Translations under genes and position numbers: made by a program
The notes under the pieces: generated by a model
Told to the model about the DNA's origin: nothing
The model's database searches: none
The model's input: only the letters and a program-made list of their open reading frames with translations
In this document: one piece after another, positions 40,951 through 48,310 of the stretch
Layout: every line of letters begins with the position of its first letter
How positions within the stretch are numbered: the stretch's first letter is position 1
NCBI GenBank assembly: GCA_965214705.1
Contig: CBDCCI010000002.1
Location: 576,001 to 640,000 of the forward strand
Direction: 5' to 3'
Origin: Alphaproteobacteria bacterium
GTDB lineage: Bacteria > Pseudomonadota > Alphaproteobacteria > UBA828
DNA length: 64,000 nucleotides

Positions 40951-41004
40951 ACTGCAAGCACAGGGTAGTTTGGGCACGTCTCGTTCGACAAGGGGAATTT
41001 GCCA

Positions 41005-41250
41005 GTGGCAAGCATCACCATCCGCAATCTCGATGACGAAGTAAGGACGCGCCTGCGCGTGCGCGCCGCAGAGCACAGCCGCTCGATGGAAGAGGAGGTG
41101 CGCATCATCCTGCGCGAGGCTGTCAGCAAGAGGAGATCTAGCCCCCGAGACTTGGCGCAGTTCACTCGCGAGTGCTTCGCGCCCATTGGCGGAGTCGAGT
41201 TGGAATTGCCCTCTCGCGGTCCGATGCGCGAACCCCCGAACTTTTCCTGA
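41005..41250 (+). CDS. FitA-like ribbon-helix-helix antitoxin
   Basis: ASITIRNLDDEVRTRLRVRAAEHSRSMEEEVRIIL. Confidence 0.88.
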   Translation: MASITIRNLDDEVRTRLRVRAAEHSRSMEEEVRIILREAVSKRRSSPRDLAQFTRECFAPIGGVELELPSRGPMREPPNFS

Positions 41251-41261
41251 GGCCCATCTCA

Positions 41262-41693
41262 GTGCGGTGGGTGCTTGACACGAATGTCGCCTCCGAGCTT
41301 ATGCGTCCGGAGCCCGCATCCGCTGTCGTGGCCTGGATCGCGGAGCAGGACGCACAGGACTTGTTCTTGACGGCTGTCAGCGAAGCCGAGTTGCGCTACG
41401 GAATTGCGATTATGCCAGCCGGCAGACGCCGGGAATTGCTGGCGACTTCCATGACCCGCTGGCTGGACCTCGGCTTCTCAGACCGCATCCTGCCCTTCGA
41501 CAGCGCTGCCGCTCGCGTCTATGCCGATATCGCATCGGATCGTCGCCGCGCGGGTCGCCCGATTAGCGAAGCCGATTGCCAGATCGCGGCAATAGCTCAC
41601 TCCCGCGGCGCCTTCCTGGTGACAAGGAACGTCCGAGATTTCGAGGGTTTGGTCGTGGATATCATCAACCCTTGGTCGCTTGCACAGACTTGA
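41262..41693 (+). CDS. vapC: PIN-domain toxin (VapC/FitB)
   Basis: VLDTNVASELMRP, SEAELRYG, DCQIAAIA, LVTRNVRDF. Confidence 0.92.
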   Translation: MRWVLDTNVASELMRPEPASAVVAWIAEQDAQDLFLTAVSEAELRYGIAIMPAGRRRELLATSMTRWLDLGFSDRILPFDSAAARVYADIASDRRRAGRPISEADCQIAAIAHSRGAFLVTRNVRDFEGLVVDIINPWSLAQT

Positions 41694-42094
41694 GTTGGGT
41701 AGCCGTCGACATGTACCTTCGCCACACTCGAAGACTGGCTGCCTCTGCCGCCTCGGCGAAGACGATGCGCGATGCAGTGTGCGTGGCCCACCGTTCGTTC
41801 TTCGGTGAACTTGGGGGGCATACTTCAGGGCTGGGAATTTCTGGATGTCGCTCCTGCTAAAGACGATCGAGTCATTCCCACTGGGTCGAACCACGAACGA
41901 GTTGATGGTCCTGCTTGACGTTGCGTTCGACGGTGCGCAGCGAGAGGCAGTTGGGCGAGAACTGGCTCTTATGGGGCTGTAGAATGTCAAACAAGAAATT
42001 CAGAACCAGCTACCACATGTGTCGGCCTCCCTGGGTTCGCAGGATCGGCGGCTACTCTTGCCAGATCGGAACGCTTGTTGCACCGGTCACACGG

Positions 42095-42260
42095 CTTTGC
42101 GCGTACCCAACTCTTATCCGGGCGGTTGCCAGCGGCGAGACGCTGGCTCCATCCCACAATCCCGCTTGCTGCGGGCACAGCGTTCCGGAGGCGGGGCCCA
42201 TCTGAAGGTCGGCGTCTTTCAGCCCGCCAGTTCTCCGGCCACACGCCACCCGGCCCAGCG
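42095..42260 (-). ncRNA. Putative bridge/seek RNA of IS110 element 1 (limits approximate)
   Basis: Four ordered segments match target and donor junction (see findings). Confidence 0.72.
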
Positions 42261-42303
42261 CCGGCCGCGTCCGGCTGACGCAAGAACGGAACGGTCTCAC
42301 GAT

Positions 42304-43500
42304 TCAGGCGATCCTGGCGCCCGTCGGCACGAGACCGGTTTCAGAGAACCGCCACAAGGCGATGAGCAGCTTCCGGGCAAGTGCTACAACCATCACTCGA
42401 CGGATGCGCCCGCGCCCGCCAGCAGTGCGCTTTTCGAACCACTCGCTAAGTGCACTATCGGGCTGATGGCGCAGCCAGCGCCACGCCATTTCGATGAGTT
42501 GAGATCGGACCCAGCCAGGGCCATCTCGGCCGATCCCTTGGTCTCGGTGCGTGTCACCGCTCGCCCACGGGGTTGGCGCCAGGCCGACCCAGCTCGCGAG
42601 TTCGCGGCGGTTTCGGAAGTCGCGATAGAAAATCTCATTGGTGAGCAGGGTCGCATCGTTTTTGCCGATCCCCTTGAGCCGGGCCAGCGTTGCGATCTTC
42701 GCCGCCGCCTGTTTATCGCTCCCCTCCGAGACATCCGTGATCGGGAGGTCGGCTCCCGACCGTGCGACCGCGTCGCGCTCGGCCTCGACATCTGCGAGCT
42801 GTCGTTCCACCAAGGACAACCTCTCCTTGAGCCGCTCGATCTCCTTACGCGCCCGCGGCGGGAACGGTGAGCCGTACGCGGTCACCACTTCCGCGAACTC
42901 CTCCTCGAACTCCTTGGCTCGGGGGGCCAGGTCGAAGACCCCTTGCAGCTTGAGCAGCCCTTTGATCGAGTTCGTCAGTGAGGTCCGCTCTTTCACCAGC
43001 CGCCGACGCTCACGAAGCAGGCGCTTGCGGTCCTCTTCCTCCACGCTCGGCACCCGCACCCGGCTCAGCACTGCAGCGTCGCCTCGGTCGTGCGCCAGTA
43101 GCGCGCGCACCATCTTCTTCGCATCGATCCGATCCGTCTTGCGCTGCTTCGCTTTTCGGTTCACCAGCAGACTCGCCGGATCGAGCACCACTGTCTCAAT
43201 GGACATCTCCTGATCTAACCAGCGCACAAGCCAGAAGCCCTGGTAGCCCGCCTCGTAGCAACACAGAACACGCACCTCTCGGCCGAGAGCCTGTTCAGCC
43301 TTGGCTCGCTGCTTCTCGATCAATTCCTTGAGCCCTTCGACCGTCGCCGCGTCCACTGGCCCCAGTGAATGCAGCCCGATCCGATCACTGGCAGGGCTCT
43401 TCACTCCCACCACCCAGCTCTTTCCGCTGATCTCGATGGCAACGTACAGCGTGCTATGCTCTGCGTTGACCGGCGCGGCGGTCTCGTTCGTTGGGGACAT
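42304..43500 (-). CDS. IS110-family recombinase/transposase
   Basis: AIEIS, YEAG, KTDRIDA, LKGIG, WVGLAPTPWASG, VALARKL. Confidence 0.93.
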   Translation of the reverse strand: MSPTNETAAPVNAEHSTLYVAIEISGKSWVVGVKSPASDRIGLHSLGPVDAATVEGLKELIEKQRAKAEQALGREVRVLCCYEAGYQGFWLVRWLDQEMSIETVVLDPASLLVNRKAKQRKTDRIDAKKMVRALLAHDRGDAAVLSRVRVPSVEEEDRKRLLRERRRLVKERTSLTNSIKGLLKLQGVFDLAPRAKEFEEEFAEVVTAYGSPFPPRARKEIERLKERLSLVERQLADVEAERDAVARSGADLPITDVSEGSDKQAAAKIATLARLKGIGKNDATLLTNEIFYRDFRNRRELASWVGLAPTPWASGDTHRDQGIGRDGPGWVRSQLIEMAWRWLRHQPDSALSEWFEKRTAGGRGRIRRVMVVALARKLLIALWRFSETGLVPTGARIA

Positions 43501-46150
43501 CTCTTGTCTCCTGATGAGGTCTAGCGAGAACGGCACCGTAGTGCCGGTCTCCGAGTCGGCCCCATAGGATCTGAACTACAAGCCAGGGGCGTGATCTCGT
43601 TAGGCCGTGATCATCGGTGGCGTGCCCAGCACCGACGCCTTGCGCCGTCCTCCGCTCCAGCACCACGTCCAATCCACTCCGGCAACGCGCCTTCCGATCC
43701 TCTGATCGCCTCGCCAGCGACCTTCACCAGGAAGCCGATAGTGGCAGATGTGCTACCTGACGAAGACCCAGCCGCGTCGGAAGTCGAACTCGATCCGCAT
43801 GCGTTGCTCCGCTACTACAAATCCGCGCTCTTGTACGACCCGCGAGGGGCTCTGACTCAGACCGGTGACCGCCATGGCGAGACCTTCCAGCTTCTTGCCG
43901 GCGAGGGAAACCTGTTTCCGGCAAGCGACGAGGAAGTCATTGTACGAATTCGGGCCGACGATCTACCGGATGCCTTCCGCGAGGCCATGATCCGGCGCGA
44001 TGACGAGGAGAATGGAGTCGCTTTGGGGTGGCCGCTGGATCTGGGGCGTCAATCTGGCGCGCCGGCCATCCGACCGGTCGGGCTTCTCGCTGCTGTGTGG
44101 ACCCGGAACGAAGACTTCATCGAACTGCGAGTTGACGCGGACGATGTCCTCGTGAATCCCGATTGGGTGCAGAGTACGGCGCGAGTCACCGCGTGGACAC
44201 GGAACGACCTTCAGGACCTATTCCGCGGGAATGGAGGATCAGGGCTGCCGGGAGAGGAGTTTCTCGGGCGACTTCGTGAGGCGGGAGCGCGCGCCGTCAG
44301 GGGGAGCCTCACGGGCAACTGCTTCGCGGCCATGATCGACCCTGGCAACACAGGAATTCACGACGCGGTCGCTTTGTTCCTGTCATTGGGTTCCGTATTC
44401 ACCGCAGGAGCGGTACGCGATCTTGATGCCATTGCCACTTGGCCGTCTGAGGACCTCTCCCGCACCGCCCTCGCACCGCTCGTTGGTTTGCCCCATCATG
44501 CAGCGGTCAATGAAGTTCCACCGGTCAATGTTGGTCCGCTCAACATGGAGCAGATCGAGGCAACCGCCCTAGCAATGCGCGCTCCTCTTTCGGTGGTAAC
44601 GGGGCCGCCCGGCACCGGAAAAAGCCAGGTGATCGTAGCTATTGCAACGACCGCACTTTGGGCGGGGCAAACAGTAATCATCGCGTCCAAGAACCATCAA
44701 GGAAACGTGTAGCTGAGATACGCGCTAATCTGGCGGCTCTTGGACCTATAAAGAATCCAGTTACGTCAACTCAAGAAATTGCGTCGTTGGCCCGGCAATT
44801 AGTCGGCCAACGTGTCACTGCGCTGAGTACTCCCGACGAAGGAACGCGCGTGGCGCTCTCCAACGCCCACGATGACCTTCAGCTGCGCGGCCACAACACG
44901 GTAGACCGCGAGTTGGCCAAGAGCGTGCTGCTGCATCGACCGCTCTGGCTCGCCTCTGTCCTCGGATCGCCGAGACGAATCCCATTGGAAGGCGGATTGT
45001 TCGATCTGGCAATTTTCGATGAGGCGAGCCAATGCGACATTGGGTCTGCGTTGCCGGTACTCGCCCGAGCGCGTCGCGCTGTCGTCGTAGGAGACGATAG
45101 GCAACTCTCCTTCATCCCTCAGTTGGGGATCGCACAAGACCGAAATCTAATGGCGGCGCAGCAGCTACCCCAGAGCGGGATGGGGCGGTTCGCGCAGAGT
45201 CGCAAGAGTCTTTTTGATCTGGCTCGGTCCACGCCGGACGTTCCCGCGGTAATGTTACGTGACCAATACCGCTCCGCAACCGATATCGTTGCCTACATTA
45301 ACCAAGATTTCTACGGCGGTAGGCTTCGTGTTGCCGCCAACCAAGACGAAATGCGCGTACCGACAACTTCACGTCCCGGCCTCCACTGGACGCACGTGCC
45401 GCCAGCACCCCAGTTGGATCATGGCTGCGGCAATGTGAGCACTGCGGAAACGCGCGCCATCGTCACGCACTTGGAGGAACTTCTTCTCAAGCAAGATTAC
45501 GATGGTAGTGTCGGTGTGGTATCCCCATTTCGCCCGCAGGTAGCAGCTCTAGCCGAGGCTATTACCGCGTGCATCCCTGGGCATCGCCGACTCGCCGCAA
45601 ACTTGCGTGTGGGCACGGTTGACGCATTCCAGGGTCAAGAACGGGACATAATCTTGTTCTCGCCGGTCGTTCACAACCTAATAGCGCCGAGCGCGATCGC
45701 CTTCCTTCAAAAAGACTGGCGGCGCTTTAACGTGGCGATTAGCCGGGCGCGCGCGGTTGCCCATGTATTCGGCGACCTGGAGTTTGCCCGCAGAGGAGCC
45801 GTGCGGCGGTTGCGAAGCCTCGCAGCTCGCGCCACCGAGCCGCGCCAAGCACCGGCGGAAGGCGTCTTCGACAGCACTTGGGAACGTCGAGTATACGAAG
45901 CTCTGCGTACGCGCGGCTTGGATCCCAAACCGCAATACGAGATCGCGGGTCGCCGGCTTGATTTCGCCGTGTTCGGTGCAGGCAGCACAAAACTTGACAT
46001 CGAAGTCGACGGTCGCCGCTGGCACCAGGACATCGACGGTAACCGAAAATTAGATGACCATTGGCGGGATCACCAGCTGCGTTCTCTCGGCTGGAAGGTT
46101 CGTCGCTTCTGGGTAGATGAGCTGGACATGGACTTGGAGAGTTGTCTTGA

Positions 46151-48310
46151 CCCAAGTTGGCACTTTTCCGCTGCCTGTGTTCCCTATTGGTTTGATTCAA
46201 CGCGATATTTTTCTCGGTCGATTCCAACATGGCCCCACATTTTGTGAGATTCTGTCAGCTCATCAGACGGGTCCTCGTGCGGTGGATGGCGGGGTCCACG
46301 CCCGCCGCCGAGGAGATTGCGGCAACCTCGGCGGCCGGGCGCGTGTCCTGGCGGTTGACGATCAAGGTGCCGTCGGTCTGGCGCAGGCGCGTGGTGATCC
46401 GCACCCAGGTCCGCATGCTCTCGCGGATCGACGCCCAGCACTTGTGGATGCCGCGCGCGGCCAGCCGGGTACGGATCAGATGCACGGCGTGGTAGGCCAG
46501 CACGGCGATCAGCAGGTGGGCCGCGATGCGCCGGTCGAGCTGGTGCCAGATCGGGCGAAGGCCGAGCTCGGATTTCAGGCTCCGGAATGTCGCCTCGATA
46601 TCCGTGATCCGCCAGTACGTCCGCAGGACCGTCTCGATGTCCCAGTCGACGTGGCTGGTGCGCAGCACATAGGCACCGGCGCCCTCATCGGCCTCGTCGT
46701 ATCGCGGCCTGCGCTTGAAGCGCACGGCGGTGGCATTGGGGCCGGTTTTCGCCCTCTCGACCGTGATCTCGTAGTGCCTGGCGACGGCGGAGAAGCGCTG
46801 CTTGAGGCGGCCTATGCTCTCCAGCACCTTGTCGTAGCGCTTGAGGCGGCCCTTGACCGGGAGGCCGCCGTGGAGCCTTTCCAGCGCCGCCTCGAAGCGG
46901 TTCCGCCTCAGGCCGATGATCGCGTTCTCGGCCTTCTTCTTGCCCTCGCTGACGACGTAGAGCCGCGCCTCGCCGTCCTCGCTGGCAAGCCGCCAGGCCC
47001 GCACCTCGTGGCGCGCGCTGGTGATCAGCAGGGCCTCGGGTCCGCCCTCGGGCGGCGCAGGCCTGGCACCGCGGCTGACCGCGATCCAGTCGTAGCCCTG
47101 CTCGCCCAGCCACGCGATGTTTTTCTCGGTGGCGATGCCCGCGTCCATGACCACCGTGGGCTTCGGCGCCGTGCCGCCGCACACCGCCTCGAGCCGCGCC
47201 AGCGCCTCGTGCAGCGTGCCCGGCTCGCTCACGTTGCCCGGCAGGATCTCGCAACTGCGCGGGAAGCCCGCGCCGTCGAGCGCCAGCGCCAGCGTGATGA
47301 GGGGACAGTCGTCGCGCTTCTGCTTGGAGCGCCCGAACCTGGGAAGCTCGCCGCCCGTGTGGCCGTGGTAGTGGACGTTGGTGAGATCGTAGAAGGCGAT
47401 CGTCTCGGGCAGGTCGAGCAGTGCGCGCTCACGGTTGAACAGCTCCCGCTGGATGGCGGCGCGGTGGCGCCAGAGCAGGTCGCCGATGCGGTAGAGCGTC
47501 TTGCGCCGCAGCGCCTTGCGGTCGCCCTCCAGGCCCAGGAGCTCGGCGGCCGCGCTGTCGTGGCGGAGCCAGCGGCTGGTATCACGCTCGCTGGCGGGAT
47601 GGACCATCCTGGCGACGATCAGCGCGCTGGCGATGCGCCCGTCGCGGCCCTTGATGTCGAGGCCGTGGAGGATTTCGGCGAAGCCGAGGGCGTCGAGGGC
47701 CTTGAGGCACAGGCGCTCGCAGCCGACCGTGCGCGGGTTCTCGTGCTCCAGGGTATCGAGGTCGACGGTGGCGATGTCGGGCTTGCGCGCCTCTTCCTGC
47801 ATCGCCTCGACGCGGAACCCCCTGGCCCTGAGCTTGGCGACGATGTCCTCGGCTGCGGCCCGCACATCCGCCTCGCCCTCGAACAGCGGCGGCTTGCCGT
47901 GAAGCAGCGCCTCGGCGAGTTCGGTGACGGCCTTCCACTTCTCGCGCGGCACCGGATAGTCGGTGCCGAGATTGAGCAGCGTCCTGTGGCGCACCTTGTC
48001 GCCGACGCGCTGGGCGAGCACGAGGCGATGGCTTCGGACCGGCTGGCCGGCCTTGTCGGTGTGTGTCCTGGTTGCCTTGATGTACATGGCGGCGCCGTTT
48101 CTGCGATGCCTGTTTCGCATACACGGCGTTCGCGGCATCTGGCAAGAGGGATATCGACTCAACTCCAAAGTCCTGGCCCCACAATTGGCTTCCAGGACCA
48201 CGAATGGCAAATGTGGGTCTCAGGTGTCCTCCAACCCCAACATCTAGTGGTTCAGCGCCGCAAAACTGGCTCGAACAGGCTCGGCTGGTCGGAAAAAGTG
48301 CCAACTTGGG
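46151..48310 (-). mobile_element. IS1634-family element, copy B (2160 bp)
   Basis: TIR CCCAAGTTGGCACTTTT/AAAAGTGCCAACTTGGG; 4-bp TSD TTGA. Confidence 0.93.
46255..48087 (-). CDS. IS1634 DDE transposase
   Basis: Near-identical core to 33117..34946. Confidence 0.93.
   Translation of the reverse strand: MYIKATRTHTDKAGQPVRSHRLVLAQRVGDKVRHRTLLNLGTDYPVPREKWKAVTELAEALLHGKPPLFEGEADVRAAAEDIVAKLRARGFRVEAMQEEARKPDIATVDLDTLEHENPRTVGCERLCLKALDALGFAEILHGLDIKGRDGRIASALIVARMVHPASERDTSRWLRHDSAAAELLGLEGDRKALRRKTLYRIGDLLWRHRAAIQRELFNRERALLDLPETIAFYDLTNVHYHGHTGGELPRFGRSKQKRDDCPLITLALALDGAGFPRSCEILPGNVSEPGTLHEALARLEAVCGGTAPKPTVVMDAGIATEKNIAWLGEQGYDWIAVSRGARPAPPEGGPEALLITSARHEVRAWRLASEDGEARLYVVSEGKKKAENAIIGLRRNRFEAALERLHGGLPVKGRLKRYDKVLESIGRLKQRFSAVARHYEITVERAKTGPNATAVRFKRRPRYDEADEGAGAYVLRTSHVDWDIETVLRTYWRITDIEATFRSLKSELGLRPIWHQLDRRIAAHLLIAVLAYHAVHLIRTRLAARGIHKCWASIRESMRTWVRITTRLRQTDGTLIVNRQDTRPAAEVAAISSAAGVDPAIHRTRTRLMS

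Follow-up and report, generated by a model that had tools for sequence, protein, structure and literature searches.

The closest described relatives of the element considered here are insertion sequences whose transposases are directed by a guide RNA. In IS621 (Durrant et al. 2024, PMC11208160; PDB 8wt6, 8wt9), the guide RNA has two domains, each of which reads both strands around a 2-bp CT core; the RNA is encoded in the left end of the element, the 5′ side of its target loop reads the bottom strand, and the subterminal repeat is 2–3 bp. The same paper reports that many IS1111 bridge RNAs carry their donor nucleotides in a multiloop, and gives the subterminal inverted repeats of the IS1111 group as 7–17 bp. 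The IS1111-group seekRNA elements ISEc11, ISPa11, ISKpn4 and ISPst6 (Siddiquee et al. 2024, PMC11187229) combine a downstream non-coding region with subterminal inverted repeats, a promoter expected from the abutted ends, target duplication limited to shared bases, and a transposase of 330–350 aa; the top-strand target match of the seekRNA lies 5′ of the bottom-strand match, and target matches are the only matches reported in that paper. It also records that IS110-type subgroups with a downstream non-coding region exist, and that ISEc21 of the IS110 group inserts into IS3-family transposase genes at a conserved stretch.

How does the present locus compare? Within the window, i.e. the whole 64,000-nt stretch of alphaproteobacterial DNA that was analysed, lies what is very probably an intact and recently mobile IS110-family insertion sequence, whose predicted guide RNA, encoded downstream of the transposase gene, would program the target and the right end. 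We call its organization IS1111-like because the subterminal inverted repeats and the position of the guide RNA region downstream of the transposase gene are those of that group.

The insertion sequence, its target sites and its transposase

The insertion sequence is 1603 bp long, carries its transposase gene on the minus strand, and has a 2-bp CT core on each side. On the plus strand, GAGAACTGG, CT and CTTATGGGG (41968–41976) follow one another at the right end, and CATAGGAT (43563–43570), CT and GAA (43573–43575) at the left end. The features of the element and its flanks are:

41957–41965, plus strand: target half adjoining the right end (right target), GAGAACTGG, or CCAGTTCTC in transposase orientation; GAACTGG in all three copies; complementary to guide 1
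41966–41967: core dinucleotide, right-end copy, CT (AG in transposase orientation); single in empty sites, one per side of the insert
41968–43570, minus strand: insertion sequence proper; present in three 1603-bp copies; 1605 bp gained per insertion
41970–41977, plus strand: right-end arm of the subterminal inverted repeat, TATGGGGC; partner of 43559–43566
41985–41990, minus strand: TTGACA, a −35-like hexamer facing outward across the right end; TTGACN in relatives
42304–43500, minus strand: transposase (bridge recombinase) gene, 398 aa plus stop, recognized by Pfam, NCBIfam and Foldseek; intact in all three copies
43559–43566, plus strand: left-end arm of the subterminal inverted repeat, GCCCCATA, read from the sequence
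43571–43572: core dinucleotide, left-end copy, CT; read from the sequence, the three copies, the empty site and public contigs
43573–43580, plus strand: target half adjoining the left end (left target), GAACTACA, or ..TAGTTC in transposase orientation; GAA common to the three copies

Three copies occur in the genome, of which two match over all 1603 bp and the third has 3 differences. All three are inserted at GAACTGG-CT-GAA, and the other two, whose left-target sequence CCTTC is a better match to guide 2 (see below) than that of the window copy, terminate at the same bases as the window copy. Two empty paralogous sites (..CCTTCAG|CCAGTTC..) have one core only, and the window's own site is empty in contigs of public runs X1 and X7, where 41965 is joined to 43571 and exactly 1605 nt are skipped, with a 2-nt ambiguity. 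The common end bases, the single-core empty sites and the contig joints all confirm the boundaries given in the original prediction. The exact 12-mer target is found unoccupied just twice in 7.9 Mb, both times in the empty paralogues. In other words, insertion is site-specific, at a short core and with neither terminal inverted repeats nor a real target duplication, as is typical of the IS110 family: three insertions share one 12-nt site, and the CT/AG core is single where the site is empty. Paralogues of another IS110-family transposase gene house two of the full copies as well as a left-end fragment, and two further paralogues are empty. ISEc21 likewise inserts into coding sequence that is conserved in another insertion sequence (PMC11187229); in that case, the host element comes from a different family, the guide RNA lies upstream, and the match order is opposite.

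The subterminal inverted repeats are 8 bp long and lie 2 and 4 nt inward of the element ends. The left end, ATCCTATG, is unchanged as far out as relatives with about 49% protein identity, and in two relatives of 42–46% identity (L094 and L096) its first six bases, ATCCTA, are kept. The genome also contains related copies of ∼80% identity (L006–L008, L009–L012), which have been truncated or rearranged. The TTGACA that the original prediction placed at 41990–41985 is present there, and TTGACN occurs in 39 of 43 distinct right-end contexts, with a spacer to the core G of 17 nt (26), 18 nt (8) or 12 nt (5). A search of the linear element gave no complete promoter, and no contig spanning the circle junction appeared among the assembled contigs of public runs. 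We infer a circular intermediate, at whose junction TTGACA from the right end and GATCCT from the left end would form a promoter, much as is expected for the IS1111-group elements.

The transposase ORF, with 70 nt of the element upstream and 336 nt downstream, encodes an RNA-guided transposase of the IS110 family whose first acidic residue is Glu. It matches PF01548 (1.1e-9, 38.7 bits; cut-off 29), the C-terminal Transposase_20 domain PF02371 (5.9e-13) and, over residues 19–385, the NCBIfam model NF033542, ‘IS110 family RNA-guided transposase’ (192 bits vs a cut-off of 140). The top 10 Foldseek matches in the PDB are all ISCro4 or IS621 recombinase chains (E 3.5e-8 to 3.1e-7), the next hit standing at 2.7e-3, and the fold matches to both recombinases span the full length; profile matches to the PDB cover the C-terminal domain (ISCro4 6e-6, IS621 5e-4), and phmmer with the single sequence found no chain in the PDB. 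The best match by structure (E 3.5e-8) and by profile is therefore ISCro4 (synaptic complex, PDB 9t56), a comparison of the protein alone, at 16–17% identity and with the sequence alignment limited to the C-terminal 125 residues. With IS621 (fold match E 1e-7 to 3e-7) the protein shares a DEDD RuvC-like domain and a Ser-bearing C-terminal domain, although it is about 70 residues longer.

The acidic positions are E23, E83, D123 and D126, of which the last three align with the E and D..D of the canonical IS110-family transposase of the same genome; E23, which stands opposite the Asp of GLDVS in that paralogue, is invariant in 9 of 9 aligned relatives, and the conserved Ser-Gly pair S314-G315 is invariant too. 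The protein thus has the two domains of the family, an N-terminal RuvC-like DEDD domain (with Glu rather than Asp as the first acidic residue) and a C-terminal Transposase_20 domain with Ser-Gly. ‘Divergent 398-aa subtype with Glu’ was a correct description; the clade is widespread, with relatives of <60% identity in 412 plasmid records, and is already named in NCBIfam.

A predicted guide RNA in the 3′ non-coding region

In the 3′ non-coding region, RNAalifold applied to 22 relatives gives a consensus fold in which a 5′ hairpin is followed by a target loop and then a donor multiloop. The original prediction had read four guide segments in order on the minus strand of this region; they are numbered accordingly below.

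42060–42284, minus strand: structured core of the predicted bridge/seek RNA, about 225 nt (RNAalifold, 22 relatives)
42255–42284, minus strand: 5′ hairpin, helices 1–2; changes on both sides in 6 of 10 pairs
42190–42247, minus strand: target-binding loop; outer stem 42247–42237 with 42198–42190, inner GGC/GCC hairpin 42224–42211
42226–42235, minus strand: guide 1 (segment 1), 5′ side of the target loop, GAGAACTGGC; 10/10 at the window site, 8/10 at the other two copies
42200–42209, minus strand: guide 2 (segment 2), 3′ side of the target loop, ACCTTCAG plus AT; 5/8 at the window site, 7/8 at the other two copies
42067–42187, minus strand: donor-binding multiloop domain; closing stem 42187–42179 with 42075–42067; helix 6 compensatory in 4 of 9 pairs
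42161–42175, minus strand: conserved hairpin CCCGC-AGCAA-GCGGG (helix 7), then AUU (42160–42158)
42151–42158, minus strand: segment 3, TGTGGGAT, 5′ strand in the long donor-domain arm
42119–42149, minus strand: donor-domain arm, including the 7-bp hairpin of the original prediction; at least 7 pairs in 19 of 22 relatives despite differing sequences
42110–42117, minus strand: guide 4 (segment 4), ATAAGAG (right end ATAAG plus core AG), and one following base that faces the first flank base; tracks the right end
42085–42107, minus strand: 3′ hairpin of the donor domain, helix 9; 3 of 7 pairs compensatory

The consensus fold has 57 pairs, accounts for 96.3% of alignment cells as paired, and is supported by 22 compensatory pairs, compared with 6.5 (sd 1.8) in shuffled alignments (0/500 reached the observed value) and 3–9 in slid controls; on all five measures of structure covariation, the shuffle test gave 0/500. 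In the target loop, helix 4 is compensatory in 4 of 9 pairs and helix 5 is invariant. Helix 7 offers no covariation test because 3 of its 5 pairs never vary and 0 pairs changed on both sides. Frequent G-U pairs on the transposase-sense strand (59/264, GU in 11 of 22; 157/200, UG in 8; 216/235, UG in 8) fit an RNA of that strand. The single-sequence fold was not better than shuffles (z = 0.54), Rfam 15 yielded no match for the region at E up to 10, and no sigma-70-type promoter or terminator for the predicted RNA was detectable in the linear element. We infer that transcription of the region, together with the transposase mRNA or following it, and subsequent processing yield a structured RNA of about 225 nt.

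Guides 1 and 2 are hypervariable 10-nt blocks at fixed positions amid a conserved scaffold. The covariation of guides with targets across homologues, which the original prediction had proposed as a check, was examined with 32 distinct guides 1 and 28 distinct guides 2. Guide 1 pairs with its cognate right flank at 7.59 of 10 positions, as compared with 4.26 for non-cognate flanks (41 events, 1620 non-cognate pairs), a difference reached in 0/20000 permutations with the control allowed the same register freedom as the cognate scoring; the register relative to the core shifts among relatives, with offsets of 0, 1 and 2 in 24, 12 and 5 of the 41 events. Scores of ≤6/10 occur in 6 of the 41, including L004, L007, L006, L038 and an internal repeat in L036, which are probably rearranged copies. 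Guide 2 reproduces the left target, then the core and the initial base(s) of the left end; it agrees with the cognate left flank at 6.29 of 8 positions and with non-cognate flanks at 3.74 (34 events, 1108 pairs), again with 0/20000 permutations. The original reading of segment 1 as a target guide holds, as does that of segment 2, TTCAG-AT at 42206–42200, as a guide for the other target strand; the entire variable block is ACCTTCAGAT (42209–42200). What did not hold is the 2-nt extension of segment 2 into the recombinant junction: the A is kept among relatives, and the base that follows may be T, A, G or C.

The guides and the fold together give the predicted RNA the loop complementary to both target strands that is expected of a structured IS110-family non-coding RNA. 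On the bottom strand, guide 2 would pair to the left of the core and continue through it to the element's first base, and both sides of the loop together would select ..CCTTC-AG-CCAGTTC(TC).., while the donor domain would form a multiloop. The DEDD-type recombinase, here with E-E-D-D and the conserved Ser-Gly, would then exchange strands at the 2-bp core, and the element would enter without target duplication apart from the shared core.

Donor recognition and competing readings

What in this RNA recognizes the donor? On the right-end side, the answer is clear: segment 4 and the right end carry the same 7-mer in 34 of 36 distinct rows, across five right-end variants (ATAAGAG, ATAAAAG, ACAAAAG, ATACAAG, ATATAAG), and a further variant, ATACGAG, is matched in a plasmid relative. 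Additionally, the base 3′ of guide 4 either repeats the first flank base or is compatible with it by wobble in 30 of 36 rows, where arithmetic from the counts gives about half by chance. The 7-bp hairpin and the right-end guide after it are thus as originally described. Segment 3, originally assigned as the guide for the left end, is ruled out in that role. Its 8-mer pairs with the left end at 8/8 positions (5 Watson–Crick and 3 wobble) in this element only; the 21 other distinct rows pair at 3–7 of 8 (4–7 where the left end is unchanged), and ATCCTATG is the left end in 20 of 22 rows. Columns 160–162 of the segment pair instead with 196–198, and 164–166 with 193–195, with compensatory changes (pair 162/196 is GC in 16, CG in 3, UA in 2 and UG in 1), i.e. 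the segment is one strand of a covarying helix. A second candidate for the left end, GGGAUY, is conserved, but it is unsupported beyond AUY and shows no compensation where the left end varies. Since segment 3 is a helix strand and no left-end RNA guide is established, the originally proposed bispecificity of the RNA stands for both target strands and the right end only.

Could the RNA be a guide to the target alone? The 5′ hairpin and target loop would then do the guiding, the protein would read both ends through the subterminal inverted repeats, and the donor-domain RNA would be scaffold or mRNA 3′ structure. According to PMC11187229, an 82-nt short seekRNA of ISEc11 that contains the target matches and no others was enough for transposition; the left end is invariant across the clade; where its position 3 does vary (ATAC or ATGC in 4 of 6 plasmid relatives), no RNA position compensates; and the proposed left-end guide has failed. 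We nevertheless consider a target-only RNA improbable, as guide 4 and the base after it change with the right end and its first flank base, and the compensatory support of the donor domain equals that of the target loop. Far less credible still, to the point of being negligible, is the idea that the matches are products of chance or copying and that nothing more than the usual 3′ UTR or terminator of a transposase gene is present here. Short matches are easily found in a G+C-rich region of 335 nt, where by arithmetic an 8-mer with three wobbles like segment 3 turns up roughly once per ten such regions, and the single-sequence fold resembles shuffles; the guide permutations and the structure covariation already contradict this reading, and the variable blocks sit at fixed scaffold positions.

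A different kind of doubt concerns activity, namely whether the guides are fossils that record an old target of copies that no longer move. The lack of a circle junction in the contigs of public runs and the decay of the ∼80%-identical copies would suit such a history, which we regard as quite unlikely given near-identical copies with intact ORFs, a site that is empty in contigs of two public runs, and perfect 12-mer sites that are still unoccupied. An intact IS110/IS1111-type element with native guides, as originally predicted, is the reading to which the three independent insertions, the empty sites, the covariation, the fold and the protein matches all point. Within that reading, we tentatively hypothesize, as a possibility that we would rate well below even chances, that donor recognition in the 398-aa clade is asymmetric: a short, programmable stretch of guide RNA (5 nt, the core and 1 further base) would read the right end, whereas the left end, ATCCTATG, would be hard-wired, being read by the protein and/or fixed by doubling as the −10 of the junction promoter, such that no left-end guide of the IS621 type is needed. 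The catalytic set would be E-E-D-D instead of D-E-D-D, and a register slide of 1–2 bases between target guide and core would be tolerated.

Placement in the family and implications

Several features are those of the IS1111 group: the 8-bp subterminal inverted repeats fall within its 7–17 bp range, the long non-coding region (336 nt) with the predicted guide RNA fold lies 3′ of the transposase gene, and guide 1, complementary to the top strand, precedes guide 2. The transposase, at 398 aa, is longer than the 330–350 aa of that group and differs in its first acidic residue, Glu; moreover, the right-end guide here shows clear covariation, and PMC11187229 reports matches to the target alone. Compared with IS621 (PMC11208160), the predicted RNA likewise has two domains, its target loop reading both strands around a 2-bp CT core and its donor domain reading the right end; unlike in IS621, it lies in the right end, the strand order of its target loop is reversed, its donor nucleotides are in a multiloop, and the subterminal repeat is 8 bp. 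Placing it by these sequence features, we assign the element to the IS110 family, with an organization like that of IS1111, and not as a proven IS1111-group member, because of its 398 aa and the IS110-type subgroups with a downstream non-coding region noted in PMC11187229.

The mechanism itself was already described in 2024, and the element is a clean natural example of it. One genome supplies occupied, empty paralogous and polymorphic sites for the same element, and on the one scaffold that about 45 relatives conserve, nature has reprogrammed the target guide into 32 versions and produced five right-end variants. The result is in effect a ready specificity table for an IS1111-like bridge recombinase of greater length, a table that could steer how orthologues for programmable recombination are chosen and designed. 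There is also a lesson in the plausible but wrong guide assignment that was corrected here: wobble-rich 8-mers in G+C-rich RNA need covariation before they are granted guide status. For the 398-aa clade, left-end recognition is singled out as the point deserving experiment.

Copies, empty sites and surroundings of the element

Two further full copies in the 7.9-Mb, three-contig genome match window positions 41959-43575, and all three copies are flanked by GAACTGG-CT ... CT-GAA (window + strand); the other insertions thus share the target that was originally read from the window's copy. The element proper is 1603 bp (41968-43570). One of the other copies is identical to it, and the remaining one differs at three positions, one of them K219M; the transposase reading frame is open in 3/3 copies, in line with the claim of an intact element.

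Paralogous sequence flanks the two other copies; separate searches with left and right flanks found these abutting at C1:603304|603303 and C3:3041043|3041044, where the sequence reads ..GGCCTTCAG|CCAGTTCGGCC.. in transposase orientation with a single AG. Since a single AG stands in these empty paralogous sites, the insert adds 1605 bp, with a copy of the 2-bp core (+ strand CT) at either end. In a third paralogue there is only a 91-nt left-end fragment. These sites belong to the 3' portion of a different IS110-family transposase gene (Transposase_20, 6e-23), whose 367-aa product has the canonical GLDVS; the preferred target lies in its ..PNWLK.. codons near the 3' end. Among the five target-gene paralogues (C1:603304, C3:3041043, C1:1326783-1328399, C1:2642142-2643758 and C3:1724978), two are occupied, two are empty and the fifth carries the left-end fragment. 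Genome-wide, the perfect 12-mer TTCAGCCAGTTC is left unoccupied at just two places, both in these paralogues. For the window's own copy, contigs assembled from the public sequencing runs X1 (organism A) and X7 (organism C) join 41965 to 43571, skipping 1605 nt with a 2-nt ambiguity, and this joint is the empty site that had been predicted; since the assembly may come from a source close to X1, we count the joint as one polymorphism and not as independent replication.

Several features of the surroundings deserve mention. The genome, and contig C3 in particular, is very rich in nested insertion sequences; for example, one 4.3-kb query returned 176 megablast hits within it, several families having 20 or more copies. 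The approximately 80%-identity relatives of the element in this genome are mostly truncated; in one related locus (L036:2644-3334), the C-terminal part of the gene and the whole guide RNA region are present twice, and another (L006, C3:533086-534520) is followed within about 60 nt by a further left end; both are tandem or partial duplications. In runs X1 and X5, a contig of low depth connects 43061 backwards to 42149; it carries 22 differences and is probably a rearranged diverged copy such as locus L010 or L011. Upstream of the insertion, at 40999-41693, lie two small overlapping reading frames (83 and 173 aa) that by eye resemble an antitoxin/PIN-toxin pair. The element itself sits just upstream of two overlapping + strand frames (43591-46247; 373 and 529 aa) that start 20 nt beyond it; the longer appears on inspection to have helicase-like motifs and a restriction-endonuclease-like C-terminal end, and the two may be one gene split by a frameshift.

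Target guides and their covariation with insertion sites

The segments in question, all on the minus strand within the predicted bridge/seek RNA (42284-42060), are as follows.

42235-42226, minus strand: guide 1, target loop
42209-42200, minus strand: guide 2, target loop
42158-42151, minus strand: segment 3, originally read as a donor guide
42117-42110, minus strand: guide 4, donor domain, right end

The alignment comprised the three copies, five relatives at roughly 80% identity in this genome and 27 loci of other genomes; 31 metagenome loci were added later. Guides 1 and 2 coincide exactly with two hypervariable 10-nt blocks of this alignment, set in the conserved scaffold GTGGCCG-[guide 1]-GGGCTGAAAGACGCCG-[guide 2]-GGGYCCC. 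The flank just right of the right end matches the reverse complement of guide 1, and the flank just left of the left end, together with the core, matches guide 2; the target addressed by the two would be CCTTC-AG-CCAGTTCTC.

Agreement of target guides with their own and with other insertion sites (last figure: permutations reaching the observed cognate mean)
Guide 1: 41 distinct events; cognate mean 7.59/10 versus 4.26 for 1620 non-cognate pairs; 32 distinct guides permuted; 0/20000
Guide 2: 34 distinct events; cognate mean 6.29/8 versus 3.74 for 1108 non-cognate pairs; 28 distinct guides permuted; 0/20000

Covariation of guide and target across homologues, the check proposed with the original prediction, is therefore present for both segments (0/20000 permutations each), and both stand as target guides. 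Identical guide-plus-flank rows were counted once. Loci L035, L037, L047, L051, L055 and L056, which have no scaffold motif or recognisable end, were left out of the counts, L044 and L053 were left out for the right end only, and metagenome loci too short on the 3' side were also omitted.

The agreement is not perfect. Guide 1 scores 6 of 10 or less in 6/41 events; these low scorers include L004, L007, L006 and the internal repeat of L036, which have missing ends or duplicated parts, and also L038, which has neither missing ends nor duplication. The register between guide 1 and the core varies as well, with an offset of 0 in 24, 1 in 12 and 2 in 5 of the 41 events. At the window's own site, guide 1 matches 10/10 and guide 2 only 5/8; at the two sites inside the other insertion sequence the values are 8/10 and 7/8. 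Guide 2 had additionally been proposed to extend by 2 nt into the recombinant junction; the first base after the core (A, left-end base 1) is conserved and the second is not, so that half of the extension stands.

Scaffold and left end are both retained in a clade of metagenome loci at about 50% identity (L062-L081). The insertion site of most members is ..AGAG|(T/G)GAGAGGGC.., often with GTGACGGG after it, a target that looks like a repeated extragenic element, and single-base differences in guide 1 among them follow the site.

The donor domain, segment 3 and the RNA fold

Guide 4 (ATAAGAG) repeats the five terminal bases of the right end and the core after them. The guide's 7-mer is the same as the right-end 7-mer in 34/36 distinct rows, across the variants ATAAGAG, ATAAAAG, ATACAAG, ATATAAG and one ATAAGAA, and this tracking bears out its assignment as a donor guide; in one plasmid relative ATACGAG occurs on both sides. 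In 30/36 rows the first flank base is matched, exactly or by a wobble-compatible base, at the position that follows guide 4, where by our own arithmetic chance would give about one half. In three plasmid relatives (L093, L094 and L096) the left-junction core is AG, the right-junction core is AA and guide 4 ends in AG, which may be the trace of a target core differing from the donor core.

What, then, is the role of segment 3, which had been read as the guide for the left end? The left end, AG|ATCCTATG, is unchanged in relatives down to about 49% protein identity, and segment 3 pairs with it 8/8 in this element alone; in the 21 other distinct rows it pairs at 3 to 7 of 8 positions (4 to 7 where the left end is unchanged), and most relatives have C as the final base of the 8-mer, the one expected opposite left-end position 1. 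In the consensus fold (RNAalifold, 22 relatives), segment 3 columns 160-162 pair with 196-198 and columns 164-166 with 193-195; the pair 162/196 is changed on both sides in 6 sequences (GC 16, CG 3, UA 2, UG 1). The arm that segment 3 closes, which includes the 7-bp hairpin noted originally, has 7 or more pairs in 19/22 relatives. In other words, full pairing with the left end is confined to this element and the segment forms an internal helix with compensatory changes; one of the four original guide assignments is wrong.

Other candidates for left-end recognition fare little better. GGGAUY (42163-42158) pairs 6/6 with the core G plus ATCCT in 19/22 rows, which is conservation rather than covariation. 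Of six plasmid relatives, four have A or G at left-end position 3, yet the G opposite stays the same, so that this guide is unsupported beyond AUY. An apparent compensatory left-end change in L053 (60% identity; GTCC with GGGAC) was dropped as evidence because its right end was not found and its non-coding region is partly duplicated. Left-end variation was also sought in two other IS110-type families of the same genome (L015-L030), but these lie nested between other insertion sequences and were set aside.

The predicted fold begins with a 5' hairpin, followed by a target loop that a stem closes and that has a small inner hairpin. The long-range stem CGGAACGCU/AGCGUUCCG closes the third part, the donor domain, which holds a hairpin, the long arm and a 3' hairpin and is therefore a multiloop. 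Standard pairs fill 96.3% of the cells of the consensus structure, and two-sided changes occur in 22/57 pairs, compared with 6.5 (sd 1.8) in shuffles (0/500) and 3-9 with slid partners, although the slid control is somewhat favoured because the structure was predicted on the same alignment. We rely on covariation since the single-sequence fold of the non-coding region is no better than shuffles (z 0.54). Many G-U pairs on the transposase-sense strand fit an RNA of that strand; Rfam 15 gave no match at window positions 41500-44000 at E up to 10.

A scan of the linear element found no complete sigma-70-type promoter. The TTGACA at 41990-41985 is kept as TTGACN in 39/43 distinct right-end contexts; in 34 of these it precedes the core G by 17 or 18 nt, in the other 5 by 12 nt. 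In a circle, left-end GATCCT (3/6 consensus positions by our count) would fall at the -10 distance, or TATGGG in the contexts with the 12-nt spacer; such a putative junction promoter would agree with PMC11187229, which describes abutted ends creating a promoter. A hairpin in the left end, CGGCRCTACGGTGCCG (43531-43546), separates the terminus from the transposase ribosome-binding site; it is conserved in nearly all relatives and may occlude read-in transcription or translation. On the minus strand at 42010-42031, an SD-like GGGAGG (42031-42026) precedes ATG-TGG-TAG (42018-42010) at about 50 nt from the right end. The arrangement of SD, ATG, 0-3 further sense codons and stop recurs in 22/46 distinct right-end contexts versus 1.2 expected from shuffles, 49-56 nt from the right end (one at 107), all 22 in the clade of at least 69% identity and 0 in the roughly 50% clade.

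The transposase and the place of the element in its family

The minus strand of 42304-43500 encodes a 398-aa protein with PF01548 and PF02371, both Pfam domains of IS110-family transposases, and the NCBIfam equivalog NF033542 ('IS110 family RNA-guided transposase') scores 192 bits over residues 19-385 (cut-off 140). The ten best PDB matches of an AlphaFold2 model built from nine relatives (mean pLDDT 76.4) are chains of the ISCro4 and IS621 recombinases, aligned over their full length (E 3.5e-8 to 3.1e-7), the first match after them having E 2.7e-3. In a profile search against PDB sequences, the C-terminal domain alone aligns with ISCro4/IS621 structures (E 6e-6 and 5e-4); phmmer with the single sequence found no match there. 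E23, E83, D123, D126 and S314-G315 are unchanged across nine relatives. Against a canonical IS110-family transposase of the same genome (MAFFT, 24% identity), E83, D123/D126 and S314 align with E, D..D and S, and E23 aligns with the Asp of GLDVS; the predicted Glu at the first acidic position is thus invariant, and it also occurs in a second family of this genome (L022). A literature search for 'EEDD' with IS110 found no paper, showing only that the term is unused in the literature covered.

IS110-family characters are present wherever they could be tested, the donor-reading part of the RNA being supported for the right end. A total of 412 plasmid records, mostly from Alphaproteobacteria, contain relatives with less than 60% identity under the annotation 'IS110 family transposase'. 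The order of strand matches is that of IS1111-type seekRNAs as described in PMC11187229, and PMC11208160 places the RNA of many IS1111 elements in the right end, with donor nucleotides in a multiloop. With 398 aa, the transposase exceeds the 330-350 aa that PMC11187229 states for IS1111 transposases, and we therefore call this an IS110-family element with IS1111-like organisation. The clade or element may already be listed in Supplementary Table 5 of PMC11208160 or the supplementary trees of PMC11187229. Overall, the finding holds and has good support; the element represents a kind of system described in 2024. To judge by its sequence, it works in the manner of the published IS1111-type seek/bridge RNA systems, and at its PNWLK target one insertion sequence disables another.
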